From Eledone cirrhosa (Eukaryota): DNA of 64,000 bases. The DNA is taken from NCBI GenBank assembly GCA_964016885.1, contig OZ024741.1, positions 60,078,001 to 60,142,000 of the forward strand, in the 5' to 3' direction. Positions within the stretch are counted from its first letter, which is position 1. Every line of letters starts with the position of its first letter. A program made the translations under genes and the position numbers. Positions 4,601-61,289 of the stretch are shown piece by piece. The notes under the pieces were generated by a model. It was not told the DNA's origin. It did no database searches and saw only the letters and a list, made by a program, of their open reading frames with translations.

Positions 4601-5320
4601 CTTTGTCCTCGCCTTTGGAGGGTGAAGTTGCGCTGTTATTTCGTTTGTTTTCTTGCAAACCATTTTCCCATCCTCTGCCGCCTCCTCATATTCCCTCTCC
4701 GACTGCTAGAGGTCGGGGAGGGGTATGAGTTCTACCCTCTCATTTGTTGCTGTTGTTGTTGGTGGTAGTTGTGATGGAGCATGGTCTGCCGTTCTTGGCG
4801 CAGGTGCAACTAGTGCAACTGTTTCTATTGCTGCCATTGCCAACACTGGTTTTGTTGTCCGTGGCTTTGGTGTGGGTACCACGGACGTTGTCTTCCTACT
4901 CTCTGTAGAAGACCCGACTTTCTCGCAGCCTGCTCTGTTTTTGATGGCAGCGGTTCCGGCGTTGTATGGAGGGTGAGTTTTGCCTTTCTCATCTTCTGTG
5001 GGCAGAAGGCTCTGAGATGTGACTTCGATCCACAGTTGAAGCACTTTGGGCGCCTTCCTTGTACAGATATGGGAAGTTGGGAGCAATACCCGAGGTCTAT
5101 TACGTCGGTAACAGCACTGATGAAGTCCTGTGTCTCTCTCTACACGATGTAATTTCATGTCAATTGTATTCAGAGAGATAAATGCTATCTTTGTTATGCC
5201 CTCTTCGAGAGACATACGTCTCTGTGTCTTTTCTCTGGTGAGACGCTTTCTCTCGATTAATTCTCATATTTTATTATAAGCGTCGTCGCATTTCCATAAA
5301 CCGAGTCCATCTTAAATTGA
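1669..5320 (-). mobile_element. Tx1-type (L1 group) non-LTR retrotransposon copy 1, 5'-truncated and internally deleted
   Basis: APE start MALLRIRSVNVRG lies at ~4085, with GDWN and TDH motifs. RT motifs include GKSPGLDGL and LINLDQSKAF. ORF1 has a zinc knuckle GRRPKCFNCGSKSHLRAFC at ~5000-5060. It is colinear with 41921-47807. The 5' boundary is approximate. Confidence 0.9.
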
Positions 5321-34456: not shown

Positions 34457-35347
34457 GTAATTGATCAAAAGAACATCTATTTTATTAATACTTATATTTT
34501 AATATATATACATATATATATATATATGGTACGAGAGAGAGACAGAGAGTGAGAGAGAGAAAGAGAGAGGGAGAGTGAGAGTATATTAATATAAAAAGAG
34601 TATATTTTCTCTTTTGTTGTAATAGGAATATTATAATCCTACTATTGATACCGGAATGATTATTGGGAAATTCAAGTTATTTTGCCGCCATATCAGTAGT
34701 AAACAAGAAATCACTCATTATTGGATAAATATGTCCAGATATTTGATATTATGTTATTGTGTGACCCATATAAAGAAGACAGTCTGAAAGTTTGTTTTTA
34801 TGATTTTTATACAAAGGGGGGAAAAGGCGACAACGTAGACTAAGGTAGCTAAGCTACACTTCAAATAGCTGAAACGTAAATACACTCCAATATGCAATAA
34901 CTAATATTATGTGTAATTTATATTCACTTGACTTTTATTATCAACACGAAATATACTTCGTGTTGTTTCTCTATGTACATAAATTATTCCTTCGTTGGTG
35001 TGCATTATGAATAAACAAAATATGCAGGCCATTATTATTAAAAAAACATAGAGTATAGAAACACCTTTATATTTTTGTATAGATTATCCAGAAACGTTAT
35101 GGCATTATTTGTTCCAATGCAAAAATTACCAGACTGTGAGAGAGAGAGGAAGAGAGAGGGAGAGAGATAGAGAGGGTGAGCGAGAGAAAGAGAGAGAGTG
35201 AGAGAGAAAGAGATAAAAGACATAACAAAACTGGCCGTTAGATAACTATTGCGTATATTGACCACAGGCCTTTTGACCACAGCAATTTGATCGATACTCG
35301 AATGATTTTACCAATCGATTGAACTAGTAAATAACAAAGATAATAAT

Positions 35348-35460
35348 GTGTTTACTTTTGGCACAAGGCCAGCAATTAACCGAGGGTTTTACTGTTGCTT
35401 TATTTTATCAATCCCGTAAGGATAAAAGGCAAAGCTAAACTTGGCGGGATTGAACTCAGA
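35348..35460 (-). mobile_element. SINE, 5'-truncated
   Basis: ggcacaaggccagcaatt...ggcgggattgaactcaga. Confidence 0.85.
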
Positions 35461-35510
35461 ATGCAAATTGCCAATTCAATAATAATAATAATATTAATAA
35501 TAATAATAAT

Positions 35511-35787
35511 CAAGAAATTATGGAGAATCAGATATGTAGGAGCGGTACTGATTGTAGTTGGCGTACTGGGAGCAGTTAGTAAAAGGTTAGATCCATGGCT
35601 TGAGAAGTTAGGAATTAGCACCAGAACAGGGTTGTTGCAGAAAACAGCCTTGATAGGAACAGCAAAGATTCAAAGGATGGTGTTGGAAAGTTGAAATAGA
35701 AGAAATGACCCAAAGGAACTTTGGGCATTGGCTATGGCTCACTCCTTTGGAATAGTGTCGCTAAAATTCAAAAACCTTACGAATAGT
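35511..35787 (+). mobile_element. R4/Dong-type 3' fragment (family C) between two (AAT)n runs
   Basis: KKLWRI..VLIVVGVLGAVSK..LLQKTALIGTAKI matches the RLE C-terminus of the Dong ORFs. (AAT)n lies at 35478-510 and 35788-805. Confidence 0.85.
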
Positions 35788-36082
35788 AATAATAATAATA
35801 ATAATGATTTCATTTATTAGCCACAAGGGCCGACATGTAGGGGACAATACAAAGACAGGGACAGTGGGGGTTTACCATAAGGTCGAGTAAAAGTGCACAA
35901 TGGCAAGACTAATTTAACAATGAAAATATAAAATATAAAATAAACTATGCAAAATATAACAAAATAAATTCCCCGATAGGGGGGTGGACGACCCTGGGGT
36001 GATTCGGGTACCCCACCAATCCTGAACCACCCTGCGCTTCTAGGGCACCCAGGAGAGCACCCCTCTCCTCAAGTTAGCTAAC

Positions 36083-39000
36083 TTATAGGCGCATGGTCAG
36101 AGTAGGCCCATTCACACGAGCCATTCTTGCCACATTCACACACCATTTAGCAAATGTACTGGGGGGCAGCACTTCTCTCTCCACCCTCACCCTCCTTTCC
36201 AGGTGAAACTTGAAGAAGTTGATGAGGGATTGGCCGAAGAGAAAAGTGTCTGTCTTTAGTCCTTTCAACCTGGTCCACCATATAATCTCTTTCGCAACTG
36301 CCACCAGACAGAGGAAAATGTCCTGCTCTTCCTGACCTAAGGAAGGTGGCGGCTCGATCTTCACTATGGACTCGGCCGATAACTGGATTCGTTCCACACG
36401 CGATAGTAGCTGTTCGACATAACTCCACAAGTCAGTAATGCATGGACATTGGACAAGTGCGTGCAGAACGGTTTCGTCGTTCTGTGCGCATCTTGGGCAG
36501 GTCCGTCTGACAGCACTTCCGTGCCTGTAGAGTTTATCCCGAACCGGCAGTGCCCCCCGGTAGCACTACCAAGCGAGGGATTTCTGGAAATTGTCCATCG
36601 TCCCCGGCTCAAAAGTCCTCCGGTACAGACTGGTCAGTTCGACTTCGTCGAAGCCCAAAGCTTCTCCGAGTGCGTCATCGCACTGGCCCACCACTAATCC
36701 TCTATAAAACTCGAGAGTGGAAGTTCCACTGATCGCATTGCCCGCTTGGTAGAGGGCAGTGAGTGCCTGGCAACATTCCAGGTGCCAGTCACCCAGTCTC
36801 GGTTTCTTCTTGACCCAGGGCTGCAGCTCAGTCAAAGAAATGAGCTGCGGAAAGGCCCGTCTGATAAACGGCGACCACACCTGTTCACCATTGAGGCAGA
36901 ATATCTGGAGATGTCGCAGCCTCAACGCATGTTTGCGCATCATTAGCCACGGCATGCCCAGCCCTCCGTGTAGAGGGTGCTGGCAGCAGATGGACCGCCT
37001 CACCAACGGAACTTGTCCCCTCCACAAGAATTTGAAGAGGAGCCGTTCCAACTTGACGAGGCGCGGACGGGGGCAAGGCACGACGATTAGGCGGTAATAG
37101 ATGACGGGCGCGATGTACGCATTCGCCACCTCCGCGCAACCTTTCAGTGATAGCTTCCTCCCAGCCCATTTTTTGGGTGAGACTGGCTACTCTACTCGTT
37201 ACCTCGTCCCAATTCTTTTCCACCTGGAGGTCTGGTCCGAACCAAACCCCGAGCAACTTTACTGGTCCGTCCGTCCAGCGCCCCACGACGCTGTTGGACG
37301 GCATGGGCTTGCCTCTCCAGGTTCCGAGCTGCAAGCCCACCGACTTTTCCGGGTTAAGTTTGGCTCCTGTCAACCTTTCATATTCTTTCAATAAGGTGCC
37401 GACCACCTCGATTTCTGAGGTGTTCGACACCATCACGGTGATGTCGTCCGCATAAGCCGACACCGCCTTTCCACGTCCCGGTTCGAGCGGGATGCCCTGC
37501 AACAGCTCCAGCTTCCGCAGTAAAGGCTCGAGAGTCAATAGGTACAGAAGGGAAGAGAGAGGGCACCCTTGACGGACCGATCGGGAGAGCCGAAATGATT
37601 CCGAGAGGTGGCCATTACCTTTGACCACCGAGCGTGTGCCGCTGTGCATTGCAACGATCCAGCTTCTAAAGACAGGGCCGAAGCCAGCTGCTTTGAGGAC
37701 AAACTCCAGATACCGATGGTCGACCCTATCGAATGCTTTCGATTGATCTAAATTGATCAGTGCCCCACCGAAGCCAGGTTTACACCCTACCCTCTCTATG
37801 ATGTATCGCATGAGGTGGAGATTGTCGTGTATGGACCTGGCTGGGATTGCGCAAGTTTGCGCCTCCCCAACCAAATCCTCGACGACAAGCGCCTATCTCT
37901 TTGCTAACACCTTGGCCAAAATCTTAAACACTGTGTTGAGCAGAGTTATTGGCCTGAAGTTGTCTAATGTATCCTTATTGTTCTCGTCTTTCCTTATCAG
38001 CGTCACCACTCCCCTACTCACAGAACTGGGAATACTCCCATTCTGCTGCCAGTTACAGTAGAGTGCTTCAAGGAGTTCGGAGAACAAGTCTGGCATATTT
38101 ACGTAAAGCTAGTAGGGCAGGCCATCCAAGCCTGGTGACTTGCGCCTCATGCAGCCGACAAGGGCGTCCTGAATTTCGGCTGAAGTAATCGGACTTTCGC
38201 AGCGCTCAGCGTCGTCCGTCGAGATGCGCGGCAAGCCGTCAAGGTAGGGACTGAAATCCGCTACTCTCTCTGACCCGCCACTCTCCCCGAACAACCGAGC
38301 AAAGTGCTGGCGAAAGGCCTCACACATCCGCTTGGAATCGCTTATCTCGTGTCCGTCTCGGTCCGCCAAAGACCGAATTGTGGTTTTATTACCATGCTGC
38401 GCCTCCGCCACGCGGGCCCATCGAACAGCTTTAGTTCCCTCGTTTCTCAGCGCACGCGCCTTAGCTCTGACAATGCAACCTTCGTGTTTGGCATTGAAGA
38501 AATGGTCTAATGCCATTCTCGCCGCTAGCACGTCAGTTGCGATGCCACTACAAATAGCTAGTTCTTTGCTGAACTCTATCGAAGTTACTCTAATCTCTCT
38601 TTTGAGAGCCCCCCACCATCTGTTGTTGATGATTCCCCCTGCCAACTTTTGCTTAACTAACTTATTGACTCGGTCCCTGTAAGCCTTACGTGCCGGAAAT
38701 GACATGTTCAGCTTCCAGTAACCCGGTCCTAACCTACGCGTTTTATTTAGGTCGACCGTACAGATCACAAATTTGTGATCTGAATAGGCGACCGTTTTAA
38801 AAAGTGGACAGCCCACACTATTTCTATCTATTTTCCTAATGAAGATTCTGTCTATATACGATCTAGATGACCCCATTCGGTTGGTCCATGTCCATACTGG
38901 CACATTGGGGAAATCTAGTCGATACCTGTCAGACAGTTGAAACTGGCTGAGTAGGTGCTTGAGGCTTTTGCACCCCCCGCTCCTATCGGCTACTCCCACA

Positions 39001-39445
39001 CAATCCCAGCGTGCGTCTAAGATGCCATTCCAGTCCCCCGCTAACAGTAAAGGGCGAGACGTACCCAGAAAGGTCTCCAGGCGCCTAAAGAAGTCAGGTC
39101 GTCCGGCCCCTGTAGGGGCGTAGGCGGCCAGCAGTCTAAAGGCACCACCTTCGCTACTGCTCACATCCAAGACCACCAACTTACCGTCCGGGTCCCGGAA
39201 GATCGACCTTACCTCGAGATCCAGTCCTTTCCTAAACAGCACTGCCACCCCACCCCCCATTCTCGGCCTGCTAAGATCTGATAGTCGTCGAAAATGGGGG
39301 CTAGTGCACGCGTGTCGGAAATTCTGGTCTCGCTTACGGCAATCACATCCATTTCCAGCGACCGGAGGTCGTTGAGCAGGCGACCCTGCTTCCAGGGTGA
39401 CCCCAGGCCGCGAACATTTAAACTTCCTACTCTTAATATGGCCAT
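36083..39445 (-). pseudogene. Tx1 ORF2 (APE-RT-Zn finger), frameshifted
   Basis: Motifs MAILRVGSLNVRG, AGDWN, YSDH, LDQSKAFDRVDH, VRQGCPLS and AYADD, split over several frames. Confidence 0.93.
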
Positions 39446-39454
39446 ATTGGTAAG

Positions 39455-41442
39455 CTAAGAGAGAGAGAGAGAAGGTTTACTTACCTCCCGGGTCTTGTGA
39501 AGGTCGGGTGGTTCGACCTCCATGGTTGGTGGGGTTTCTTTTGGGGACCCCTTTAAAAGTCTTGATGTGGGTTTCACATTCGGGTTTCCCACGTCTTGAG
39601 GAAAGCTCTCTCGAATTTCTTTGAAGGAATTGAGTGACATTCGGACCAGAAGCAAATCTTCTGGCACGCAAAATGTGCTCATTTCAAAAATCTCCCCCTC
39701 TGTTTGAATGTCCTCGCTTCGCGCTAAGAGGGCCATCAGTTTATCGTTGGCCCTTCTGACAAGCACGAAGTTTTTAACATTTTGTTGGTGTGGTTTTATT
39801 TGTTTTCGTTTTGGTGAAGGTGGTGGCGATGGTTTTGGTGGTGTTGTTTCGGGTATGTCTATGTTTGTTGTAGGTGTGGTGACTGCAATTTCAGGTATTT
39901 GTGTGTCTATTTGTACTTGTGTTTGTTTAGGTTGTTTGCGTTTCGGGGATTGTGGAGGTGGTGTCGATGTTGCTGATGGTGCTGATGTTATTGGGGAAGT
40001 GTCTGCGTTAGTGGTGTCTGTATTTTTTGTTGTGTGTGTTTTTGTGTTTTGTAGGGGCTTTTTTTTTGTGTGAGTTTTCTCTGTTTTTTTGCACTTTTGG
40101 GTTTTCCTTCATCTTCGCTGCTGGAAGACAAAGGGTCTGTGTCTGTGAGTGTCTCTGTGTCTGTGTGTGCGTTTATTTTTTTGTTGTCTATGTATATAGT
40201 TGGGGGGGGGGGGGTAGGCGGAGTGGGAGAGCTTTCCTCGTTTTCTCCTTGGATTGGTTTTGGTGTTGGTGGTGATCCGGCTGCTTTTGATGTTGGTGTC
40301 CGTGTTTTTGTTGATGTTGTTTTTGGTGGTGGTGGTGGTGCAGCTTTCCGTGCTGACACTGGCGTTGGCAACAAAGGAGGTTTGCGACCCCCTGCATTTT
40401 TGCGCTGAGGGCAGAAGGCTTGAAGATGCGTGGCTTCCCCGCAAACGAAGCAGCGTGGCCTTCTTCCGTCAATCATTAGTTGGATTGTTGTCCCGTCCTG
40501 CAGGCGGGCAAAATCTGGGATGTTATTTACATCCCCCGGTTTCATTTGGAGAAGAATCTCCAAATCCATTCCGGACCAGTCTTCTCTCTCTGTCCTTTTG
40601 ATGTCCAGGAGGGTGGTGTCTGTCCCCTCCTCGATTACGCATCCCAGCAGCCACCATATGTTCATTCCTGGTGGGATGCTGGGAATGCGCACCTTCACTG
40701 TCCTTTTACCCATATAGGACGGATGCATGATAATGCGTTCCGTTCTGCAGGGGATCACCGAGCGCTTAATAGCGAGGGCCTCCGATTTGAACAGTACCGA
40801 GATGGTACCGAACTGTTTGCCTCTTGCTTTGTACTCTATGTTACTTCCGATGTACTCCAACGCAGCCTCTACCTCTGCTTGGCTCGCAAGTTCCACTTTT
40901 CGTGTCTGCACCGAAATACATCGAAAGAGCACCGTCCTCCTTTGCATGGCCGCTATTGCCTCGTCCGGGATGGTCAGGTTTGCCCAGGACTTCTCCCGTT
41001 TAATTAGCCTCCACGCTTTGGCTAACTGTTCGTCTTTATCGCTAATATCAATATCGATATTCAATAAGCGCTTTGTTTTTGCTGCTGCTGCTGCTGCAGC
41101 AAATGTGGTGTTTCTGATGCTCTTATTGTTGTTGTTGTCATTCTTGCTGTTGCCACCGCCATCCTTGTTTACATTGAAGCTGTCGGTGTTTTTCTCGTTA
41201 TTGCTCTGAGTTGTTGTTGTTGTGGTGGTGGTGGTGGTGGCGGTGGTGGTGATGTCGTTTTCAGATGATACTGCTGCTATACCAGAAGATTGTGATGGTA
41301 GCTTTTTAGTTTTGCCTTCACATTCAGTAGAGTGGATGACAGGCATGACTGTAGCCGTCGTAGTCGTGGTGAAATCTGGAGTGGCTGCCTTTAAACTTTT
41401 GACCTGAACGTTGTTTACCGTTTCAAGGTCGAAAATTTCCAT
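39455..41442 (-). pseudogene. Tx1 ORF1 (gag-like CCHC), frameshifted near ~40000
   Basis: Contains CFVCGEATHLQAFC with Thr/Pro low-complexity flanks. Confidence 0.88.
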
Positions 41443-41710
41443 AATTTTCTTTTGGTGGGGAGGCGATTTTTTTGTTTTTCGAAAATTTTAAAAATAAATC
41501 TGAATATTCGGGCTTAAAGCCCGAATATTGAGAGGTATCCCTCTCTTTAAATCAAGATGTGTACCTTAAGTTTCGTTAATGACAAGAAAATACAAAAAAA
41601 AAAAATTTAAAACAGCTTAAAGCTACGAACCGTTTCCCCCGCAGACTTGTCTGTCTTCACACATGTGCGGCCATAATAATAATAATAATAATAATAATAT
41701 TAATAATAAT

Positions 41711-41898
41711 TGTTTCTACTTTAGGCACAAGGCCAGCAATTACCCAGTGCATTACTGGTACTTTATTTTATCGACCCCGTAAGGATGAAAGGCAAAGTCA
41801 ACCTCGGCGGGATTTGAACTCAAATCATAAAGGGCCGTAACTCTATGCTGCAAAGCATGGTGTCCGACCCTCTACCGATACTGCCAATCCACCGCCCT
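41711..41898 (-). mobile_element. SINE inserted in the (ATT)n tail of Tx1 copy 3, ~22 bp TSD
   Basis: taataataatattaataataat lies at 41689-710 and 41899-920. Confidence 0.93.
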
Positions 41899-42164
41899 TA
41901 ATAATAATATTAATAATAATGATTTCTTTATTAACCACAAGGGTTTACATAAAGTAGACATTAAGGACAGTACAGGACAATACAGGACGGTACAAATGGG
42001 CATTTCTGCGTGTAAAAAAAACAGAGGATGAAATAAAATAACAAAGAAAAATTCCCCAATAGGGGGGAGACTTCCGAGGGACATTTGTGGAGAAAGCCCA
42101 TTAAAAGACCACAGTGGCCCTGACCACCAGGGCAAGTGCCCTCTCCCAGTTTTCCACCTTTAAT

Positions 42165-45100
42165 TTACAGACACATACTCATTCGGGCCATACTTGCCTG
42201 TCTCACCCATCTTTCAACAAAATGCTGGGAAGAGAGCACTTCCCTCTCTACCCTGATTTTCCTTTTCAGGTGAAATTTGAAAAAGTTAATCAGGGCATCA
42301 CCGAAGAGGTAAGTGCTCGTCTTCAGCCCTTTCAAACGTGTCCACCATACTATCTCTTTCGCCATGGCCACCAGACAGATAAAAACTGCCTGCCCTTCCC
42401 GGCTAAAGGAAGAGGGCGGGGCAATCCTCACGATGGACTCAGCTGATAGCTGGATCCGTCCTACACGTGACAGCAGGTGTTCGACATAAACCCACAAGTC
42501 AGCAATGCTCGGACACTGGACGAGTGCGTGCAGGACGGTTTCGTCGCCCTGTGCGCATCTCGGACATGCCCGGCTGACGGCACCTCCATGCCTGTAATGT
42601 TTATCCCGAACTGGCAAAGCACCCCGGTAGCACTGCCAGGCCAGGGATTTCTGGAAGTTGTCCATAGGCCCCGGCCCGAAAGTCCTTCCGAAGAGATTGG
42701 CTAGTTGATTTTCGTCGACGCCTAGAGTTTCTCCAAGTACGTCGTCGCTCTTCCCCTCCACTAATCCCCTATAGTACGCAAAGGTGGAGTTTCCACCGAT
42801 TACATTGCCCGATTGGTCGAGGGCTGTGAGCGCCTGAAGACATTCCAGTCTCCAAACGCTCCCTCTCGGTCTTCGCTTGACCCAGGACTGCAGCTCCGTC
42901 AAGGAAACGAGCTGGGGAAATACGTGTCTAGCAAACGGCGACCACACCTGATCACCGTCGAGGAAGAGGTGGAGATGTCGTAGCCTGAGCGCGTGTCTGC
43001 CCATCATAAGCCACGGCATGCCCAGCACTCCACGTAGCGGGTGTTGACAGCAGATGGACCGCCTGACCATCGGAGCGCGTCCCTTCCACAAGAAGCGAAA
43101 GAACAAACGCTCCAACGCACTCAGGCGGGGCTTAGGACAAGGTACGACGGTCAGGCGGTAGTAGATGACGGACGCGATGTACGCGTTAGCCACCTCCGCT
43201 CGACCTTTCGGGGATAGCTTCCTCTCGGCCCTTTTCTGGGTGAGAGAAGCCACCCTGCTCGTCACCTCGTCCCAGTTTTTGTTTGTCTGGAGGTCTGGAC
43301 CGAAACAGACCCTTAGCAATTTAACCGGTCCGTCCGTCCAGCGCCCGACGACGCTGTTGGACGGCATGGACCTGCCTCTCCAGGTGCCGAGCTGCAGGCC
43401 CACTGACTTTTCCTGGTTGATCATTGCTCCTGTCACCGCTTTGTATTCTCTTAGTGTAGTGCCGATCGCCTCGATGTGTTTGGCGTTCGACACCACTACG
43501 GTGACATCGTCGGCATATGCTGACACGGATCTTCCGCATCCTAGTTCGCGCGGGACCCCCCTCAACGTCTCCAGTTTGTGCAGTAATGGCTCGAGAGTCA
43601 ATACGTACAATAGGACGAGAGGGGACATCCTTGGCGGACCGAGCGCATGATGTTGAACGGTTCCGAAAGGTGACCGTTCACTCTCACTACAGAGCAGATG
43701 TCGCTGTGCATGGCAGCGATCCAGCCTCTGAAGACGGGCCCAAAGCCAGCCGCCCTCAGGACTGCCGCTAGGTAACGATGGTCGACCCTATCGAAAGCTT
43801 TCGACTGATCTAAATTGATCAAGGACCCACCCGTGCCAGGTTCCCTAGCTACCCTCTCTACGATGTATCGCATGAGGTGGAGTTTGTCGTGGATGCATCT
43901 GCCGGGAATAGCGCATGTCTGTGCCTCTCCCACCAGACCAACAACGACAAGCGCCAACTTCTTTGCTAGCACCTTGGCCAAAATCTTGAACTCTGTGTTT
44001 AGCAGAGATATGGGCCTAAAATTATCTATGTTATCCCCCTTGTTCGGATCCTTTCTCAGCAGCGCCACCGCTCCTCGGCTCACAGAGCTGGGAATTCTCC
44101 CGTTCTGTTGCCAGTTGCAGTAGACGTCCGCCAAGAGGCCTCCGAACAAGTCTGGCATTTGTACGTAAAGTTCATAGGGCAGACCATCCAAACCAGGCGA
44201 TTTACCCCTTGTGCAACTAGTCATTGCATCCCGTACTTCAGCGGTTGTTATCGGCTTTTCGCAACACTCCGCCTCAGTGGCCGAAAGCCGCGGCAGTCAG
44301 TCGAGGTAGACACTAAAGTTCATCCCTCGATCCGGCCCGCCACTCTCCCCGAACAGTTGAGCGAAGTGTCGCTGAAAAGCTTCACACATTTTCCCGGGAT
44401 CGAGTAGCATGCGCCGGTCGTGGTCCACCAAAGACCGGATCGTGGCTTTGTTGCCACGACGCGCATATGCCACTTGGGCCCATTGAACGGCTTTCGTCCC
44501 CTCGTGTCTGAGAGCACGCACCCTAGCTCTGACAACGCAGCCTTCATGCTTTGCATTGAAGAATTGGTCAAGGGCCAATTTCGACGCAAGTACGTCGGTC
44601 GCGATGCCTTTGCTAAGCGCCTCATCTAATTTTCTAACTAATTCTCCCTCTGCTCTATTTTTCTCTATTGCTAAAGTCTTACTAAACCTAATGGACTCTA
44701 TTCTAATTGCTCTTTTCAGAGCAAACCACCACTTGTTGTTGACGATGGCCCCCGTCAACGCCCGCTTAACTAGTTCGCTAATCCGGTCTCTGTAGGCCTT
44801 GCGCGCTAGTAAGGACGCGTTTAGCTTCCAGTAGCCGGGTCCTCGTCTATGAAGCCTATCTAAGTCAAGCACACAGATCACGAATTTGTGGTCCATGTAG
44901 CTGACTATCTTGAATTGTGGACAGCCTATGCTAGACCTATCTATTTCCCTACAAAATACTCTATCTAGATATGATCTGGATGACCCTATGCGATTTGTCC
45001 AAGTCCACATTGGTACATTCGGGAAATCCAATCGGTACCTGTCAGACAGTTGAAAACGCCTGAGCAGGTTGGTGAGGCTCTTGCACCCTCCTTCCCTATC

Positions 45101-45563
45101 CACTAATCCCACACAATCCCAGCGTGCATCTAAGATCCCGTTCGCCCACTAACACTAAAGAGCGGGACGTTCCAAGAAAGTTCTCCAGACGCCGGAAGAA
45201 ATCGGGCCGCCCTGCTCCTGTCGGGGCATAGACGGCCACTAACCTGAAAGCTTGGCTGTCTCCGCTGGTCACGTCCAGCACCACCAACTTACCTTATGGG
45301 TCCAGGAAGATGGCCCGTATGGCAAGATCCAAACCTCTCCGAAAAAGCACAGCAACTCCTCCCCCCGAACCCGGACGGCTGGGAGATGCGTACACATTGT
45401 AGCCGCCGAAGATCGGTGCGAAAGTCTGTGCTTCAGAGATTCTGGTCTCGCTGATGGCCACTACATCTATGTTTAGTGACCTGAGGTCGTTGAGCAGGTG
45501 GCCCTGCTTCCATGACGATCCCAAGCCACGCGCATTTATGCTGCCTATTCTGAGTGAGGTCAT
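42165..45563 (-). pseudogene. Tx1 ORF2 (APE-RT-Zn finger), frameshifted
   Basis: Motifs MTSLRIGSINARG, YMDH, GKSPGLDGLP, SAYADDVT and CPRC..ETVLHALVQC. Confidence 0.93.
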
Positions 45564-45597
45564 GTTGAAAAGGAGTGGAAAAGATGGGAAAGACCAC

Positions 45598-47598: not shown

Positions 47599-47807
47599 TT
47601 TCTTTCAAAGAAATTTTTTGATAATAATAAAAGTTTAAATTTTGGGCACAAGGCCCCAATCTTTTTGGGTGTCCTTTTCGGAAAACAATATATGTGCGCT
47701 TATATATGGTTAACAATAAAAATTTTCCATAAATGGCAATTTTTAACAAACGGAAATAACAAATCTTTGCGGAGCTCACGATGATACGATTTACTACGTA
47801 GGTCGCC

Positions 47808-47860
<53 letters not shown>

Positions 47861-48440
47861 GGGAAGAAGACGCACGAGGTGACGGAGGTCATGAAATCGC
47901 TCCCGTAAGTTTTGAATTTTTAACATATTTAAATCATTTGTGAAATAACAACTCTTAGTACAAATACTACGTAAAGCACCCGGCTTGAGCCCCAAAAAAT
48001 TCGGACCCAAAATATATTGTTATAAGGCTCAAATATTCAAATATTCAACTTTGTATTGTACACTGTATATCCAAAAAAGAAAATGGCTATAAATGGAAGA
48101 AGAACCCCTCCCCTCCTCCTCTGTCTACACTATATAGAACAGCCAAACTCACCAACACCAGAAACTAGATACACCACCCACCCCATCACCTGTGTACACT
48201 AAACCACCACCGCTCACTACGGCCATCATTACAACCATTATCCCATCACCGCCGCCACCACCCCTTCACTCCTTCACTGCTACCACCGCTACAGCACCAT
48301 CACTACAGTAATACGGTCACATCACCGCCACCACTGCCTCGGTATCGACATCACCACCACCAGTGTCTCAGTATCGCTACCGCCGCCAGTCACCCACTTC
48401 ACTCAGCTGGCTGCTGCCACCACATCATAGAATCCCTACT
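47861..48440 (+). repeat. Unit X, copy 1 (direct repeat of 52436-53037)
   Basis: gggaagaagacgcacgaggt...ctgccaccacat is present twice, each time immediately after (AAT)n. Confidence 0.92.
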
Positions 48441-48749
48441 GCTAAAAAAGAGGAAGGCATCAAAATATATATATAGACTCAAAAGAAAAAAGAAAAAACA
48501 AACAACAAAACCAAAGCAGCACAGCAACAACAGCAAAAAACGAGAAAAACAAACAGAGAAAAACAAAAACAAAAACAAAAAAAAGAAACCCCCAAAACGT
48601 AAAGAAAATAAGAATGAAGAGAGAAGCAGGCGGACGGACAGAGAAGAGGGGGGGGGGGGAAGTAAAACTTAAAAAACTTAAACTAAGTCAGACATTCGAA
48701 CACTACATTACAATGAAACTTATGCTTATTCATTTTTGGGGCCCTTTCT

Positions 48750-51700
48750 GCCTGTGTGTTTGTTTGTTTATGTGTGTTCGTATACAGCGTGGTGATAATG
48801 CCACACAAGGGCCAAGTGGAATGGCGGATCCATAGATGGATATGTAACCATACATTCGCCAATCCTCGATAAGAGTGTTTAAACATCGAACATAAACAGT
48901 TCGAATAACGGTGAAATGGAGACTAGAACGTCATGTGACAGACTCTCACCCAACAGGTGCCCCCTGGCTCAGCAGCAGGAACCTGACTGTCAACCAAATA
49001 CTGCTGATGTTGGAGGAAGGAGAAGAAGGAAAGGGGCCAGAACCAACTGGACGAAAGAATTGAATAGAACTGTTATGCAATGTTACCTGAAAAGTAACCC
49101 CAAGGAGAGGGGCTACAGGAGACGGATGCATAACATCTGGAACGAGATTGGTTTATTTAAATTAGATGAACAAAAATTGGCCGGGCAGGCTCGGGTAATA
49201 AGAACTAATGGATGGATAAGCGAGCTGGAACTGGAGGAACTGAGCAGAGAGAATGGCTTGGAGATGGCGGGTGTAGTATGCCAGACAAGCGAGCCAGTGG
49301 GAAATGATGGTGAAGAGGTCCTGAGAACGGAGGAACCACCCGAAGCAGACAATGATCTGAATACTGAGATAAATAATACCTGGAACAGAGATACGGCCAC
49401 TGAGGAGATGAATGCTGACGGGCTAGGACAAGATTCGGTTGACATCCTAAATTTAGTGGTAGATGAATTGAACAATGATAGTGGAAGACCTATGAACCTA
49501 AGATTTGTAGACAGGAAAAAGTTAAAAGAAACAACAGCTAAGGTAAACAAAGTCATCCCATACCTTGAGGCGAGGAGCCTTCACCAGTGCAACAATATCC
49601 TCAAAGCAACAGCAAATACGGTGAGGAAACTACTTGGTATAAAAGCGAGAGGAAACAACAGACAAGAAAGAGCAGAGCCGTGGTGGAAGAAGCGACTGAG
49701 TGGGCAAATCGGGGAAATGAGAAATGACATAGGAAAGCTTGAGTCACTACTGAATGGGACACTAAAAAACATAGGCACTAAAAATAGACTGGAAATAAAA
49801 TACAAAACTAGGAGGAAAAAGCTAAATAATATTATCATAGAGGAAATGAAGCAACGCATTGTAGCAAAGAGTGCAAAAATCAGGCGATACGAGAACAGAG
49901 TCAGTCAGTATAAACAGAACCGCATGTTCGACAACAACCAGAAGATGCTGTTTGGACAGCTTGAGGGGAAAGAAAGAGGCAACGACTTGATCCCTGGGGC
50001 GGAGCAAACTAAAACATTCTGGAGAAGAATATGGGAGCAGGATGTTAGACACAATGCCCAGGCAGGGTGGATTGAGACAGTACAGAGGGAGATCGGTGAG
50101 CAGGCACAACAACAAACTGATTTGAGTATCACAGTTGAAACTCTTAAGGGGCAGGCCAAAAAACTAACCAACTGGAAATCACCAGGCCCAGATGGTGTGC
50201 AGGGGTATTGGATTAAACATTTAACATCCCTCCACCCGAAGCTGACGGCCATGTTCAATGACTGCTTGGTGTCGGGTGAGGTGCCAGAGTGGTTGACAAA
50301 AGGTACCACAGTTCTGATAATGAAAGACCGAATCAAGGGTAATGATGTTACCAACTATAGACCTATCACATGTCTGTCCGTAATGTGGAAACTGTTGACG
50401 AGCATTGTGTCTGAGGAAATCTACCATCACCTCCACACAAACAACTTGTTACCGGACGAACAGAAAGGATGCCGAAAGAAGTCACGTGGTACAAAGGACC
50501 AGTTACTTATTGATAAGATGGTAATGGGGAATTGCAGGAGGAGACACACTGATCTTGCCATGGGATGGATAGACTACAGAAAGGCATTTGACATGGTGAC
50601 CCATTCCTGGATCACCAAAAGCCTGGAGATCTTCAGGGTGGCAGATAACATCAGACAGTTGCTAGGCAGGAGTATGGGGTCCTGGGAGACAGAGTTGACA
50701 TCAACTGGAGTATCCTTGGGAAGCGTGAAGATCAAGAGAGGTATCTTCCAGGGAGATAGCCTGTCCCCTCTGTTGTTTGTCCTTGCCCTGATGCCCTTGA
50801 CCATTATGCTGCGAAAAGTGAGAGCAGGATACAAGTTGGGAAGGGGAGAGCTTACCATCAATCACCTCCTCTTCATGGACGATCTTAAGCTCTTCGGGAA
50901 AAGTGAGAAGGAGTTGGATGTGCTTGTTGACACTGTCCGTATTTTCAGCAGTGATATATGTATGCAGTTTGCTATTGGTAAATGTGGAGTCATTGTGATG
51001 AAGAGGGGTAGGTTGAGCAGAAGTAACGGGATCCAGATACCAACAGGTGAGATGATAAAGGAAATTGCCTCTGAGGAAGGATACAAGTATTTGGGCGTTC
51101 TGGAGGCTGATGGCATAAAGAACAAAAAAATGAAGGAATTGTTAAGAACTGAATACATTCGGAGAGTAAGGAGCGTATTGAAGTCATATCTGAACAGCAG
51201 AAATGCCATAAGCGCAGTAAATTCCCGAGCTGCGTCTATTATTAGGTACAGTGCGGGAATTCTGAGATGGAATATTGCTGAACAAAAAGAAATGGATATG
51301 AAGACTAGGAAGCTATTGACTATCTACAACATGTTCCACAAGAGGAGTGATGTCGATAGACTCTACCTAAGGAGATTTGAGGGTGGAAGGGGTCTTATCA
51401 GCATAGAGGACTGTGTTCAGATGGAGAAAAACAACCTATACAAATACGTGACCTATAGTAAGGAGCCAATGCTCAGAACTGTACTGAAGGAGGGGACAGT
51501 AGGCCAGGGGATGTCCAAGGAGGAAATAACATCAAGGAGGAAGAGCAGCCTTAAGGGAAAATCCCTTCATAGTACCTTCTTTGAGAAAATTGAATTTAGA
51601 GATCCACAGACATGGAACTGGTTGAGAAGAGGAGACCTCAAAAAGGCTACAGAAGGAATGCTAATGGCTGCGCAGGAGCAGGCCCTCAAAACGAAGTGGT

Positions 51701-52385
51701 TGAAGCACCATATCTACAAGGAGGAGGCTAGCCCACTGTGCAGGATCTGTGGAGAGAGAGAGGAGACTGTGGCTCACATTGTAACCGAGTGTAAACACCT
51801 AGCCCAGACCCACTATAAGGGCTGGAGACACGATGTGATGGGCAGGGTGATCCACTGGCACCTGTGCAAAGTAAACAATTTACCACATTCTGAGAAATGG
51901 TATGAGCATAGGCCAGAGGCGGTGATGGAGAACAATCAGGTGAAGGTGCTGTGGGATTTTAGGATACAGACGGACAAAAAACTGGAACACAATAGACCTG
52001 ACCTGGTGGTTGTGGACAAAGAAAAAAGATCGTGTCTGATTGTGGATGTGGCCTGCCCGTTCGACACGAGAGTGCAAGAGAAGGAGAGGGAGAAAATTAA
52101 CCGATACCAGGACCTAAAGTGGGAGGTGAAAAGGATTTGGAACTGCCATGAAGTCAAAGTGATCCCGATTGTCATAGGCGCACTGGGGACTATCTCCAAA
52201 AGTTTCCAGGGATGGTTAAAGAAAATCGGCCCCATCACGCTTTTTGGAACGCTTCAAAAGGCATGCTTGCTTGGAACAGCAAGAACACTCCGATACGTCC
52301 TGAATATCTGAGGCTGCAGGTAGTGGCTTGATATTCAATCCAACGGACTTTCCAGTTAACCAACATCAATGACTGAGATTCAAGG
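48750..52385 (+). mobile_element. R4/Dong-type retrotransposon (family A), apparently full length
   Basis: The 5' limit comes from homology with 61290+. It has a single ORF, a ~75 bp 3'UTR and an (AAT)n tail at 52386-435. Confidence 0.95.
48916..52311 (+). CDS. Intact RT-RLE polyprotein, 1131 aa
   Basis: Has an N-terminal Myb-like segment (NWTKELN..CY), then KSPGPDG, IFQGDSLSPLLF, HLLFMDD, CRICGEREETVAHIVTEC, RHD and RPDLVV..D..K..Y. Confidence 0.96.
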   Translation: METRTSCDRLSPNRCPLAQQQEPDCQPNTADVGGRRRRKGARTNWTKELNRTVMQCYLKSNPKERGYRRRMHNIWNEIGLFKLDEQKLAGQARVIRTNGWISELELEELSRENGLEMAGVVCQTSEPVGNDGEEVLRTEEPPEADNDLNTEINNTWNRDTATEEMNADGLGQDSVDILNLVVDELNNDSGRPMNLRFVDRKKLKETTAKVNKVIPYLEARSLHQCNNILKATANTVRKLLGIKARGNNRQERAEPWWKKRLSGQIGEMRNDIGKLESLLNGTLKNIGTKNRLEIKYKTRRKKLNNIIIEEMKQRIVAKSAKIRRYENRVSQYKQNRMFDNNQKMLFGQLEGKERGNDLIPGAEQTKTFWRRIWEQDVRHNAQAGWIETVQREIGEQAQQQTDLSITVETLKGQAKKLTNWKSPGPDGVQGYWIKHLTSLHPKLTAMFNDCLVSGEVPEWLTKGTTVLIMKDRIKGNDVTNYRPITCLSVMWKLLTSIVSEEIYHHLHTNNLLPDEQKGCRKKSRGTKDQLLIDKMVMGNCRRRHTDLAMGWIDYRKAFDMVTHSWITKSLEIFRVADNIRQLLGRSMGSWETELTSTGVSLGSVKIKRGIFQGDSLSPLLFVLALMPLTIMLRKVRAGYKLGRGELTINHLLFMDDLKLFGKSEKELDVLVDTVRIFSSDICMQFAIGKCGVIVMKRGRLSRSNGIQIPTGEMIKEIASEEGYKYLGVLEADGIKNKKMKELLRTEYIRRVRSVLKSYLNSRNAISAVNSRAASIIRYSAGILRWNIAEQKEMDMKTRKLLTIYNMFHKRSDVDRLYLRRFEGGRGLISIEDCVQMEKNNLYKYVTYSKEPMLRTVLKEGTVGQGMSKEEITSRRKSSLKGKSLHSTFFEKIEFRDPQTWNWLRRGDLKKATEGMLMAAQEQALKTKWLKHHIYKEEASPLCRICGEREETVAHIVTECKHLAQTHYKGWRHDVMGRVIHWHLCKVNNLPHSEKWYEHRPEAVMENNQVKVLWDFRIQTDKKLEHNRPDLVVVDKEKRSCLIVDVACPFDTRVQEKEREKINRYQDLKWEVKRIWNCHEVKVIPIVIGALGTISKSFQGWLKKIGPITLFGTLQKACLLGTARTLRYVLNI

Positions 52386-52394
52386 AATAACAAC

Positions 52395-52435
<41 letters not shown>

Positions 52436-53037
52436 GGGAAGAAGACGCACGAGGTGGCGGAAGGTCATGAAATCGCTCCTGTAAGTTTTGAATTTTTAAC
52501 ATATTTAAATCAATTGTGAAATAACAACTCTTAGTACAAATGCTACGTAAAGCTTGAGCCCCAAAAAATTCGGACCCAAAATATATTGTTATAAGGCTCA
52601 AATATTCAAATATTCAACTTTGTATTGTACATTGTATATTCAAAAAAGAAAATGGCTATAAATGGAAGAAGAAACCCCCCCTCCTCTGTCTACACTATAT
52701 AGAACAGCCAAACAACACCAATCTCACCAACACCAGAAACTAGATACACCACCTACCCCATCACCTCTCTGTGTACACTAAACATAACAGCCAGATAACG
52801 GCAATTTCACCACCACCACTCACTACTGCCATCATTACCACCACTATCCCATCACCGCCGCCACCACTCCTTCATTGCTACCACCGCTACAACATCATCA
52901 CTACAGTAATACGATCACATCACCACCACCACTGCCTCGGTATCGACATCACCACCACCACTGTCTCAGCATCGACACCGCCGCTACTGTCACCCACATC
53001 TCCCTGCTGGCGGCTGCCACCACATTATAGAATTACT
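52436..53037 (+). repeat. Unit X, copy 2
   Basis: Matches 47861-48440, differing by substitutions and small indels. Confidence 0.92.
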
Positions 53038-53616
53038 ATTATAGAATTACTATTATTATTGTCTCAAATTAAAAAAAAAAATGTTTAATTCCAATTTTAC
53101 GGGAATATGTCAACACAAAATATAATAAAAATATTTATTAAACATACGAACACAAACTCATAGATACTACCACCCCACCCCATCCATCATTGCTACCACT
53201 ATCCCATCGTCGCCGCCACCACTCCTTCAATGCTACCACCACTATTCCCCTGTTAACTTGAGAGAGAAAGGGGAAGGTGGCGGTATCAGTAGACAAGGGA
53301 GAGGCTAGCAAAAGATATAAATAGATTGACTTAGTGATCTGGCCACCGGCCAAACGTCAACATCAACATCTATGGGACTGCTGGCTCACCCCTTCCTCAC
53401 CAACAATATAAAAAGCTCCGGCACCACCACCGACATAGCCAACAACAATAACAGCCAACTACAACAAAAAGTATATTATATTATTGTAATGCACTGGGTG
53501 ATTGCTGGCCTTGTGCCTGGAGTGGAGACAATTATTAATAATTTCATTCTTAAGCCACGCAATGCTCATATTAAGGAACCACTCATGATAATAACAATTT
53601 AAAAAAAAAAAGAAAA

Positions 53617-56600
53617 CCCCGTGACCAAGAAATACCAGGATGGCGGCCGGCGGGGAATAGCCGTGTCTCTAGGGGAGAACGACCCCTCTAGTCTTGGTTG
53701 ACACTCGTTCTAGAAGTGGTAACACGAAATGATTACCCCTTGGCGGATAAGGATAAAACGCGACAAAATAAAGTAAATGTCTAATGATAAAACCTCATAC
53801 CGGATCGGCCGTCACCCGGGTAAAAAAGGGCCGCATCCCTCAGAGAGGAACCAGACTGGGGTCGAAAAATCAGCTAATGGTTCAAACCTTCCCATCACTT
53901 CGGAGCTGGAGACCTCCCATAACCGGAATACTCCTACTGTTGGCCCTCCATGCTCACCACCAAGAAATCCAAAGAAAAAGAGAGAAAAATGGTCAAGGGA
54001 AGATAATAAAGAAGTCCTTGAGGCTTTCTACACTGCCATGTACTACCCATCAAATACATCAAATACAGAACAGACATATATCAACTGGAAAAAGAAACAT
54101 CCCGAAAACAGAGGCTATATGTCAATATAGTAACAAACTAGCCAATATACGAAGAAATATTGTAAGAAAAAAGTTACTAACTGATATAGAAATTGATCAG
54201 ATCAAGCTATTAACACAAAGTCAGCGAAGGGAAAATGAAACATGTGTCAGTGAAAACGAGGTAAACTGAAACACTTCGAATCCCAGGGTTGGGGCGGAAT
54301 CACTGGCAACAGAACAAATTAAAGAAAGGATCGAAAAAGTGGAGGGAGTGCATGCTCAGGATGAAACTCCAAATGAAAATAATGAGATCGTAAATGATAA
54401 AGAAATGAATGAGAATGAACTTGTCAACTTGAAGAATGAAATTATGATCGAATGGATGAAAATGAAAGAATCTGACATGGGGCAACGAGACACCCTCCCT
54501 AAGATCCAGAACTCCAAACAGAACCAACAGATAATACACAAGACTAACATAATTCTCAAAAACATTATCATCACAAACAAACTAAACATTACTGATTTAA
54601 ATCATCTCTATTATGCATCGGCTAAAGTCACCACTCACTTATGTGGAGTGAAGATGAAAAAACAAAGGAATTCCCATAAGAAATCTACTTGGCAAGAGAA
54701 TATCAATCGCCAAATAAACCTTCTCCGATCTGACATAGAAATTTTAGCAAACTATAAAGTAGGTGAACATGTTAAACAAACTAAACTTAGAAAAATTGAA
54801 AAAAAAGTACCGTATAAAATCAACATGTGACATAGACATGCTGATAGAAATAATCAAGCAAAAAGTGTCGGCCAAAGCTGCTCATATAAGGCGCTTTGAA
54901 AAACGATCTAGATTCTATAAGGACAATAATATGTTCAAAAACAACCAAAGAAACTTCTACAGAAAAATTGGTAAGTCAACAATAACTGCTAAATCAATAC
55001 CAACCAAGGAGGAAGTGCAAGAATTCTGGGAAAAGATCTGGGCCGAAGAAAAAGTTCATAACATACATGCCCCATGGATAGACAGACAAATGAAAGATAC
55101 AGCTCACCTTGAGGAACAAACATGGGAAAATATAACAGTTGAACAGTTGCGCTTGGCTCTAAGAAAAACCAGCAAATGGAAATCCCCAGGAAAAGACAAA
55201 ATACAAAACTTTTGGATAAATGCCTTCGCAGAGTCTCATGAGCTGTTAGCCCAACTTTACAATGAAATAGTTAAGGAGCCAGAAAAGATACCTTCATGGC
55301 TAGTTAACGGCATTACATTCCTGCTTCCGAAGAATGATGAGACAAACAATCCCAAAAATTACAGACAGATAACTTGCTTGACCACAATGTATAAAATTTT
55401 AACATCAGTCCTAACTGAATACACATATGACCACCTGATAACAAATGACCTATTTCCCATTGAGCAGAAAGGGTGTAAACGAGGCTGATATGGCTGTAAG
55501 GATCAGCTTCTGGTTAACAAAATGATACTGGAAGATTGTCATAATAGACACAAAAATCTATCGATTGCTTGGATAGATTATAAAAAAACATTTGATAGTT
55601 TGCCACACAGTTGGATTGAAAAATGTTTAGAGATTTTCAAAGTATCCTCCGTTGTCAGGAGGTTTTTGTCATTCAGTATGAAGACATGGAACACGACACT
55701 CCTTTTGAATAGTGAAACAAAATCACTGGAAGCTGGAGAAGTTAATATTAATTGTGGAATTTTTCAGGGTGACTCTTTATCATCGCTTTTATTCTGCATC
55801 GCACTTATACCATTAAGTAAAATGCTCAATGAAACAAAACATGGATATAAAGTCTATGTCAAAACCATTAATTACCTGTTCTACATGGATGACCTGAAAC
55901 TTTGCAAAAAATGATGAACAATTGCAAGGGCTATTATCCACTGTGAAGCAGTTCAGTGATGACATTAAAATGGAGTTTGGACTAGATAAATGCGCCAAAG
56001 CAACGTTCACCAGAGGAAAGCTGCTGAAGAGTTCAGACATTAATCTTGATCGGGGAACGTGATAAGAGAACTTGATCAAGAAAAAACTTACATATATCTA
56101 GGTGTTTGTGAAGGAGACGGAATCAAGCACTCGACAATGAGGGAAAGGATAAGGAAGGAATGTTACCGCAGAGTAAGAGCAATCTTAAGAACGGAATTGA
56201 ATGCAAGGAATAGGATTGATGCCATAAACACGCTTGCCATACCAGTAGTAACCTACAGTTACAATGTCATTAACTGGTCAAGCACAGAGATCCGTAGGCT
56301 CGATACAAAAATTCAAAAATTCTTAACCAGGCACAGAATGCATCACCCTAAGGCAGATATAGATAGAATATATCTCCCTAGGAAAGAAGGAGGACGTGGG
56401 TTAATCCAGTTAGACATTGCGTTGAAAACTGCAACAATTGGATTATCTACATATCTAAGGGAATCACATGATTGGATGATCAAACTCGTTTTGAAACACG
56501 AAAGCATCAAAAGATCATATTCCATTACAAAAGATGCACAAAGATACAGTAATGGACTACAAATTTCAGAAGTCCCATTTACTGCTGAAATGGAAAACAC

Positions 56601-57570
56601 AGAAAAAGCAAAGCAGGTAAAAGTAACTGCAAAGAAAGAACTGCTACAGAAACTGTCTAAGAAATGGCAAGAAAAGTCTCTGTATGGAAAATACCCAGAA
56701 CGAGCTAACAATCCTGATGTTGACAAATCTTTAACCCATCAGTGGTTGGCATCCTCTGGACTGAAATCGGAGACTGAAGGACTGATTATATCGGCACAAG
56801 ATCAGTGTCTGCCAACAAAAAATTTCCAAGCCAACATAATAAAAAATGGGTGCAGCCCATTATGCCGTGTATGCAAAAAACAACCAGAGACCATTGACCA
56901 TATAATTTCAATGTGCAGTCCTATAGCTCCAACCGAATACCTAAACAGGCATGACAGAGCTGCACAATACATACATTGGATAATGTGTAAGCATTTTGAC
57001 CTGCCCCATCAAAAGAATTGTTGGGAGCATCAACCACCTCCCATACTTGCAAAAGATCACATCACAATCTTGTGGAACTTTAGCATCCAAACAGACCGAA
57101 AAATAGATGCAAACAGACCTGATATAATATTGAAAGACCTTCAAAAGAGGGTATGCCTGCTAATTGATATGTCTGTTCCAATAGACAAGAATGTATCTGT
57201 AAAAACATTTGAAAATTTGAGCAAGTATAAGGACCTGGCGATAGAAATTGGAAAAATGTGGAAATTGAGAACTAAAACAATACCAGTGGTTTTAGGCGCT
57301 CTGGGAATGATACCTAAGGGGGCTAATGATTACTTATCGCAAATCCCAGGAAGCCCGCGTATAGGAGAAATACAAAAGATAGTACTAATGGGAACTGCCC
57401 ATATACTAAGGAAGATTCTGTCAATATAAATACATCACAAGTCTAAACACTAAAGATGCATGTGTGAATATGTATGTTCTTTCTTGAACATGGCGGACCT
57501 TGTTGTCTCTTGAGGTCACTGGTTGTGACTTGGTGATAACTCGTATGAACATAAAGCAAGATAAATGCAA
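53617..57570 (+). mobile_element. R4/Dong-type retrotransposon (family B), full length but defective
   Basis: The ORF 53777-57429 is broken by frameshifts and stops. Motifs include EKWSREDN, IFQGDSLS, YMDD, CRVC..ETIDHIISMC and RPD. An (AAT)n tail lies at 57574-645. Confidence 0.94.
53623..53711 (+). ncRNA. Candidate HDV-like self-cleaving RNA at the 5' end of Dong B
   Basis: P1 gaccaa/ttggtt, P2 agaac/gttct and P3 gac/gtc with loop ccctcta occur in HDV order. P1.1, P4 and the catalytic C are not clearly assigned. Confidence 0.4.
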
Positions 57571-57572
57571 CT

Positions 57573-57645
<73 letters not shown>

Positions 57646-58000
57646 GTGGTACAATCATCCTGTGAGGCTATAACTGACGTAGAAAAAGTAACAATTCTTT
57701 GGGACTTTCCTGCACATACTGACCGGGCCATGAAAGTTAATAGACCAGATATCACTGTAAAAGACCAAAATAGCAAGGTATTTTTATTGATTGATATGAG
57801 CATCCCATGTGATCACAATATCGTGGCAAAAGAATTTGACTAGCTAAGAAAAGATAAAGATCTGCTTATTGAAATCGAAAAAATGTGGCCGTTACAATAC
57901 CAATGATTGTACAAGCACTGAGAATGATCAAGAAAGGAACAGAAGAGTATTTGCGAATGATTCCCGGTTTACCCTCCCTGCAAGACTGGTACTGAACACA
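57646..58000 (+). mobile_element. R4/Dong-type 3' fragment (family D), decayed
   Basis: ILWDFPAHTDRAMKVNRPDI..LIDMSIP begins directly after (AAT)n. Confidence 0.85.
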
Positions 58001-61187: not shown

Positions 61188-61289
61188 AATTTGATAGCAG
61201 GAGAGAAACTTTGTCCCTATTGAATCGGTTTAAGTTTAATCGTAGGGGCATTTTTATTCTATAATAATAATAATAATAATAATTTTTTA

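Follow-up and report, generated by a model that had tools for sequence, protein, structure and literature searches.

Young Tx1-type and Dong-type retrotransposons of Eledone cirrhosa probably share one AAT/ATT microsatellite, face opposite ways in it and build mixed arrays

A 64,000-nt window of contig OZ024741.1 from Eledone cirrhosa (genome assembly searched, 3.0 Gb) contains, at positions 35348-58000, an array of retrotransposons separated by AAT triplet repeats. All coordinates given here, unless preceded by a locus number, are those of the whole window. Self-comparison, translation and Pfam searches resolved the array, from left to right, into a short interspersed element (SINE, minus strand), Dong C (plus), Tx1-2 (minus), a second SINE (minus), Tx1-3 (minus), Dong A (plus), Dong B (plus) and Dong D (plus). 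In the original prediction, made from the letters of the window, ten back-to-back elements had been proposed. Their contiguity was confirmed, but the count decreased to eight, since both blocks then labelled 'X' are 5' untranslated regions (UTRs) of Dong elements. The proposal that the junctions are (AAT)n runs, all reading AAT on the plus strand, was borne out: an AAT spacer is present at 7/7 inter-element junctions, the seven spacers are built from 10 runs of at least three AAT units, and the sole (ATT)3 run of the interval is internal to the Dong B 5' UTR.

The left edge of the array is a SINE remnant (35347..35477, minus strand) consisting of a 3' half and a short head-like piece; its 3' end is flanked by no more than two ATT units. 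An (AAT)5-ATT-(AAT)5 spacer (35478..35510, plus, as are all spacers listed here) is followed by Dong C (35511..35787, plus), the 5'-truncated end of an element with a restriction-like endonuclease (RLE), 45% identical in amino acids to Dong A residues 1086-1140. An (AAT)6 spacer (35788..35805) joins Dong C tail-to-tail to the full-length L1/Tx1-type element Tx1-2 (35806..41672, minus). Its first open reading frame (ORF1, 39988-41487) encodes a CCHC knuckle; its ORF2, for an apurinic-type endonuclease (APE), a reverse transcriptase (RT) and a zinc finger, is frameshifted in the window and open in another genomic copy (L216). The next AAT spacer (41675..41710) includes, at 41690-41710, one copy of the 21-bp target-site duplication of a full-length 189-bp SINE (41711..41899, minus), the ~25 terminal nt of which are similar to the 3' end of Tx1. 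The second copy of this duplication, which is marked by an interruption (41900..41920, plus), begins exactly at the 3' end of Tx1-3 (41921..47807, minus). Tx1-3, also full-length and of L1/Tx1 type, has an ORF1 (46157-47566) 37% identical in amino acids to that of Tx1-2 and an ORF2 that is broken in the window, open in copy L240 and 75% identical to Tx1-2 ORF2.

Tx1-3 meets Dong A head-to-head across an (AAT)17 spacer (47808..47858). Dong A (47859..52385, plus) is a full-length RLE-type element with an open ORF (48883-52311, first Met at 48916) carrying RT, CCHC, RHD and PD..D motifs; its tail (52386..52433, plus) consists of family-specific AAC-containing units and then (AAT)13. Dong B (52434..57574, plus), full-length and frameshifted, is 36-38% identical to Dong A in amino acids and is followed by an (AAT)23 spacer (57575..57643) and by Dong D (57644..~57990, plus; 3' limit approximate), a degenerate RLE-domain fragment that is cut at both ends, stops before the ORF's end and lacks a tail. 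The expectation that every RLE element lies on the plus strand with an (AAT)n tail therefore held for Dong A, B and C and failed for one of four, the tailless Dong D. Tx1-2 and Tx1-3 lie on the minus strand with (ATT)n at the 3' end on their own strand, as predicted; the same statement about SINEs did not extend beyond the array, since SINEs are frequent elsewhere in both orientations.

The blocks formerly regarded as a separate element X with an ATT tail (47859-48740 and 52434-53040) belong to Dong A and Dong B, respectively. Genomic copies align unbroken from X into the Dong ORF, 14/29 Dong A copies begin at the first bases of X, and truncated copies begin within it. The two 5' UTRs are 85% identical in nucleotides, as against 36-38% amino-acid identity of the proteins, and a plus-strand SINE piece (53486-53530) is built into the Dong B UTR as a constant component. 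Comparison of 47859-48480, 52434-53040 and L163:8666-10000 revealed mosaic variants of the shared UTR, in which the fixed SINE piece and a palindrome of AAT/ATT occur internally.

Pfam matches of Tx1 ORF2 comprised Exo_endo_phos, RVT_1 and zf-RVT, which together with the CCHC knuckle of ORF1 is the architecture of the L1 group. L1 ORF2p was the best solved relative of Tx1 ORF2 (E 6e-57 over residues 6-855; R2, E 2e-18), and R2 proteins were the best solved relatives of Dong A (E 1e-30, with L1 behind at E 1e-14). A Pfam scan gave no APE match in the Dong ORFs. The Dong A ORF contains FMDD at residue 664, CCHC at 953, RHD at 982, PDLVVVD at 1039 and DVACP at 1055, and the same set occurs in Dong B; we take the usual names of these motifs (CCHC, RHD, PD..D etc.) to apply. 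A single ORF with an RT followed by CCHC, RHD and PD..D, inserted in TAA repeats with sense (TAA)n flanks, is the arrangement of the R4/Dong group. Among relatives of the Tx1-type RT that carry a name, a hypothetical protein of Argonauta hians (69%) was closest, which pointed to an octopod as the likely host; other relatives were unnamed. The labels Tx1 and Dong are thus likely assignments from architecture and target, no named reference element being among the relatives returned. Copies with open ORFs are present for Tx1-2, Tx1-3, Dong A and a further family, Tx1-4 (L153, L154, L156). Tx1-4 has its own 5' UTR, an ORF1 ~53% identical in amino acids and an ORF2 region 94% identical in nucleotides to those of Tx1-3, and the same ATT polarity; as far as alignment can tell, this pattern is one of module exchange. 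An Rfam scan of 35000-59500, in which no dedicated fold search was included, gave low-complexity matches only and no HDV (hepatitis delta virus)-like ribozyme.

Association of the repeats with element ends was analysed in searches of the assembly, in which the 40 best matches were scored for each family and the first 30 loci, including the window, were examined; these samples lean to young copies. Sense (ATT)n, scored as (ATT)3 within 24 nt upstream, preceded the 5' end of 26/29 Tx1-2 and 29/29 Tx1-3 copies (55/58 in total), and (AAT)3 preceded none. Sense (AAT)n preceded 28/29 Dong A copies (script criterion, at least two sense AAT units within 14 nt) in a set of which 15/29 are truncated, and the lone scripted miss shows the repeat on alignment. 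For Dong B the corresponding number was 21/29, with two more copies in which an (AAG)n stretch lies in between, so that sense (AAT)n was found at 49/58 5' ends of the young Dong families together. Loci L070, L085 and L086 have long runs of (AAG)n where (AAT)n would otherwise meet the Dong 5' end, which starts GAAGAAG; slippage at this 5' junction is the likely cause. At the other end, the repeat was present in 18/19 Tx1-2, 18/18 Tx1-3 and 20/20 Dong A copies, three further Tx1 ends being out of reach. Background was estimated from a 480-kb sample of the genome, made up of 48 stretches of 10 kb (40 placed randomly on seven large contigs, the other 8 taken at round coordinates), in which Tx1-like sequence makes up 2.8% and Dong-like sequence 0.6%. 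Random positions drawn from this sample had (ATT)3 in the 24 nt upstream in 1.6% of cases. The comparison with microsatellite background that had been proposed thus supports the original prediction, and neither random 5' flanks nor a 50:50 orientation, either of which would have spoken against it, was seen in copies elsewhere. In an RTE family used as a control, 19/19 copies terminate with (AT)n or (ATGT)n and none with triplets.

Copies cut at many different points also follow the repeat, which indicates that it is a target and not merely a tail. Among Tx1 junctions chosen for contact with a repeat, not for its orientation, 27 come from copies whose truncation points range over positions 220-5867; each of these is preceded by (ATT)n and not one by (AAT)n. 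In an unselected set of truncated Tx1-3 copies 4/6 have the 5' repeat. The association was thus observed at both ends and in truncated copies. If the repeats were solely tails added by reverse transcriptase, with elements piling up passively beside others, an older Tx1 family (median pairwise identity 85%) with 3' tails and no 5' repeats would be readily explained, as would SINE insertion at short ATTAT sites. In that older family, three ATT units follow the 3' end in 18/29 copies, two in 25/29, and AAT in 0/29. For the young families, in which full-length and truncated copies alike have a 5' repeat, always in the orientation of the tail and even beside unrelated DNA, this explanation is largely refuted, and overall it is very improbable. 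At two Tx1 5' ends, the same unnamed repeat with a SINE piece lies beyond the spacer (L157:130-820 and L158:162-930); the spacer of L157 switches from (AAT)14 to (ATT)5.

Polarity was equally consistent across the genome. In a table of 466 unique repeat runs from loci L001-L310 and the window (query copies included), Tx1 ends adjoined 225 ATT and 2 AAT runs, Dong ends 234 AAT and 4 ATT runs, and SINE ends 144 ATT and 5 AAT runs. The four apparent violations by Dong were misassignments, caused by a SINE piece given to the Dong B UTR and by the internal AAT/ATT palindrome. A sister Tx1 family with AAT tails, considered on account of L104/L151 and L096/L152, was rejected: 0/29 relatives of L151 end in AAT, none of them above 89% identity (L152 was not searched separately), and both cases are lone old copies adjoining Dong A. 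Genome-wide flanks therefore support the earlier proposal that an APE and an RLE lineage use a common target with opposite polarity.

Arrays are not restricted to positions 35348-58000. The tail-to-tail junction that had been reported to recur at 1603-1668 is present, as an (AAT)22 spacer (plus) between a Dong B copy (1..1602, plus, 97% identical to Dong B) and Tx1-1 (1669..5130, minus), a degenerate L1/Tx1-type element with an approximate 5' boundary that lacks an ATT run. This junction lies near the right end of a second array of ~33 kb, the largest observed, which starts 28 kb left of the window and ends at ~5130. At the right end of the window, (AAT)7 is followed by a 5'-truncated Dong A-type copy (90%; 61263..64000, plus) that runs on for 288 bases beyond the window and terminates in (AAT)17. 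Other arrays, of 16-17 kb or more, occur near the window and on contig C28. On the far side of the flanking repeat, another member was present in 88/111 cases, in the expected orientation in 86/88. In one region of contig C2 (60.02-60.23 Mb; L162, L163, L170, L331-L337 and the window), five separate arrays or pads are spread over ~210 kb, all with AAT on the plus strand, and arrays on C28 at 38.74-38.78 Mb all have ATT on the plus strand. This regional uniformity could be a coincidence, the result of older arrays having been split, or a strand bias of the region; SINEs gave no signal of long-range strand bias (20 same versus 15 opposite).

Arrays could also be built by segmental duplication, by unequal crossing-over or by read-through that mobilises neighbouring elements together. 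Such processes would agree with head-to-tail Dong-Dong pairs being the commonest junction (54), with modules common to several families (the Dong A/B UTR, and Tx1-4 with a Tx1-3 ORF2 at 94%) and with some array junctions that lack a spacer. However, element order varies between arrays, truncation points vary by junction, and junctions between the clades are common, both head-to-head (44) and tail-to-tail (29); 26 further junctions are Tx1-Tx1. As the main source of the arrays, these processes are improbable. Growth by insertion, which had been proposed on the grounds that each insertion leaves a new target, is supported by the far-side neighbours; the renewal itself was seen directly for the SINE only.

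The SINE has the polarity of Tx1 and the same target in a relaxed form, together with readable target-site duplications. (ATT)3 lies upstream of 15/45 near-full SINE copies in the sampled DNA. A duplication of at least 12 bp was found in 77/147 near-full copies, in 58 of which it is not pure ATT, and its length was 14-19 bp in 46 of these 58 informative cases. Away from the tails of other elements (n = 45), the duplications start with ATTAT (41-44 matches per position), and the preceding base (-1) is C in 24, T in 17, A in 4 and G in 0 cases, versus 20, 42, 27 and 12%, respectively, before ATTAT in sampled DNA. The SINE target is thus (C/T)|ATTAT with duplications of 14-19 bp, through which the target is renewed, and is not microsatellite-specific. 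Head-to-tail SINE chains with a period of ~190 bp, in which each SINE end rebuilds an ATTAT site, occur at 31560-32567 and 30286-30703. ARAGORN and Rfam scans found no tRNA-like head in the SINE of the type that, with Pol III boxes, marks tRNA-derived SINEs such as octopus OK, OR1 and OR2.

SINE and Tx1 have in common ~25 terminal nt, CCTTGTG..AA..GAAA(C/T)C/A before ATTAT, which the tested RTE elements lack. Of 346 matches to this motif, 303 lie in SINE or Tx1 copies, 17 in the Dong B UTR fragment, and 26 are unassigned, these last being mostly variant-like. The shared terminus suggests that Tx1 is the likely mobiliser of the SINE; RTE was rejected as a partner, since both its 3' end and its target differ. 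A similar motif, recurring in 12 copies, lies within the Tx1-3 5' UTR (47620-47655, minus).

In target-primed reverse transcription, elements with sense ATT flanks are primed from the AAT strand and those with sense AAT flanks from the ATT strand. Since their orientations differ, Tx1 and Dong would be primed from opposite strands. For Tx1, priming would start at a nick of the AAT strand. Provided that the SINE travels as its passenger, this nick would be at 5'-ATAAT^R-3', and a second one 14-19 nt away would duplicate ~5-6 triplets in pure repeat. The Tx1 AATAAA lies 6-7 nt before the junction, and from the usual distance between this signal and poly(A) cleavage the Tx1 RNA likely ends inside the repeat; contigs aligned at 35600-36400 gave no information on the ends of transcripts. 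Dong would prime from the ATT strand and add several RNA-encoded units; AAC units at fixed places in Dong A tails (20 and 16 copies), differing between subfamilies, indicate that several tail units are likely derived from the RNA. Each insertion would split and partly duplicate the repeat, leaving a usable target on both sides, and because a Tx1 end (...C|ATTAT) is itself a favoured site, SINEs and further LINEs (long interspersed elements) would land at Tx1 tails. Polarity would be set jointly by endonuclease preference and by pairing of the RNA tail with the primer, and would persist as each new RNA acquires an identical tail by read-through.

Polarity might instead result from RNA-primer pairing alone, both enzymes nicking the AT-rich repeat on either strand and the convergence being a frozen accident of the tails: priming is open to an (AUU)n tail on the AAT strand alone and to an (AAU)n tail on the ATT strand alone. 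Each repeat strand contains T-A steps, Dong A tails are partly encoded by the element, Tx1 RNA would end inside the repeat, and the conserved ATTAT lies on the primer side, all of which agree with such a scheme, as does the requirement of L1 priming for at least four matching terminal bases (PMC3649969). However, the pyrimidine at -1 (41/45, G never) and an A/T bias at -3/-2 lie on the side that is unable to pair with the RNA, in data that concern the SINE and not Dong. Because base -1 lies across the probable nick and the SINE has A there, pairing alone is insufficient for the SINE, and the bias points to a preference of the enzyme. Pairing as the sole determinant is possible, with the odds against it, and RNA-tail pairing may share in, or decide, strand choice. 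From orientation one can read which strand primes reverse transcription, but not which strand each endonuclease selects.

Together, these results indicated, with a probability of about 0.78, that young Tx1 (APE) and Dong (RLE) elements occupy the same AAT/ATT microsatellite, are oriented oppositely in it and make up mixed arrays, which likely arose as target-primed insertions recurred. For the Tx1 and Dong LINEs themselves, we infer target renewal from this scheme. Several observations weigh against this overall reading. In the older Tx1 family only 1/16 reachable 5' boundaries adjoins (ATT)3, below the >20% of flanks that marks target preference in Tx1 families (PMC4494074) and that the 55/58 of the two young families exceed. 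Many of these old copies have internal deletions and their 5' boundaries may not be insertion junctions, so that either specificity was looser then or the junctions have been masked by deletions. Among young copies, 2/6 truncated Tx1-3 and 6/29 Dong B elements lack a 5' repeat. Two old Tx1-like ends adjoin (AAT)n in front of Dong A, and at the tail of one Tx1-2 copy (L207) the SINE has the reverse orientation. A clean target-site duplication was unreadable for any Tx1 or Dong copy, with none among 93 Tx1 ends or 16 old copies. The link between SINE and Tx1 depends on the ~25-nt motif in a survey that covered part of the LINE families. Finally, the pad is unsaturated: 9/14 runs of at least six units in the 480-kb sample have no member as neighbour.

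Each ingredient of this system has precedent. Dong elements are known to insert in TAA repeats (PMC3812793, PMC3774820), and Bombyx Dong, DongAg and DongBg likewise have a single ORF with RT, CCHC and a PD..D endonuclease. Unlike these, the Eledone elements comprise two lineages (36-38% amino-acid identity) that share a 5' UTR of ~1 kb, and they share their target with an APE clade. Tx1 families target TC, TTC, TTCC and TTTC repeats and mobilise SINEs of the same target (SINEU) (PMC4494074). Kibi (TC)n, Koshi (TTC)n and the crocodilian (TTCC)n/(TTTC)n families resemble those described here in having two ORFs, APE-RT and simple-repeat insertion, but here the target is (ATT)n and not a C/T repeat, in at least three young lineages. 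In parallel, the Tx1 (APE) element Keno and the RLE element Utopia arrived at the same site in U2 snRNA genes (PMC4640811), with the same 3' flank, hence the same orientation, in a low-copy gene, whereas opposite orientations, a dispersed microsatellite and mixed arrays in one genome were found here. TRAS and SART insert into (TTAGG)n telomeres in opposite orientations and form arrays (PMC10088271); both are of the R1 clade and use a target maintained by telomerase, unlike the two endonuclease classes and the interstitial, likely self-renewed repeat of the present case. In Drosophila, site preference yields tandem elements by double insertion (PMC5932611), whereas the Eledone arrays mix families and clades under a fixed strand rule. 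Octopus vulgaris has abundant Dong-R4 elements with recent activity (PMC13282606), and octopus repeat papers report Dong-R4 and L1-Tx1 as abundant, with no target analysis in the text covered (PMC13282606, PMC8967140, PMC9115989). No ATT/TAA-targeting Tx1 and no mixed APE/RLE microsatellite array was found in the literature searched, to which PMC3747384 and PMC4758252 added nothing further; these families may already be described in sources outside its scope, namely the Octopus repeat library, Repbase Reports and Kojima and Fujiwara 2004. Within that scope, the combination and the ATT target of Tx1 appear to be new.

An ATT-targeting Tx1 lineage would extend the known list of Tx1 targets, and the arrays offer a mechanism for part of the transposable-element hotspots mapped in O. 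vulgaris (PMC13282606). The system is suited to the question whether endonuclease or RNA-primer pairing sets target and strand in non-LTR (long terminal repeat) insertion, because two enzyme classes act on one three-base repeat, open-ORF copies exist for both and SINE duplications are readable. A wider proposal, which we regard as tentative and rather doubtful, is that octopod LINEs divide microsatellites among themselves: APE and RLE lineages would split the two strands of one repeat, each enzyme nicking its own strand and each insertion making targets for the other clade, the 20-30 kb arrays would serve as sites of 5' module swaps (the Dong A/B UTR; Tx1-3/Tx1-4), and RTE would hold (AT)n.

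The RTE-type family, which encodes zinc fingers (L268:7517-10000, L352-L370), has (AT)n/(ATGT)n repeats before 3/3 truncated 5' ends and likely occupies a microsatellite niche of its own; it also holds (ATT)n inside its 3' UTR. Broken ORF pieces at 13902-15595 (plus), with related pieces in many loci and no Pfam match, resemble parts of a Penelope-type RT and GIY-YIG endonuclease. Another LINE type, at L277:4000-5820, ends in (GATA)n and represents a further class of tail.

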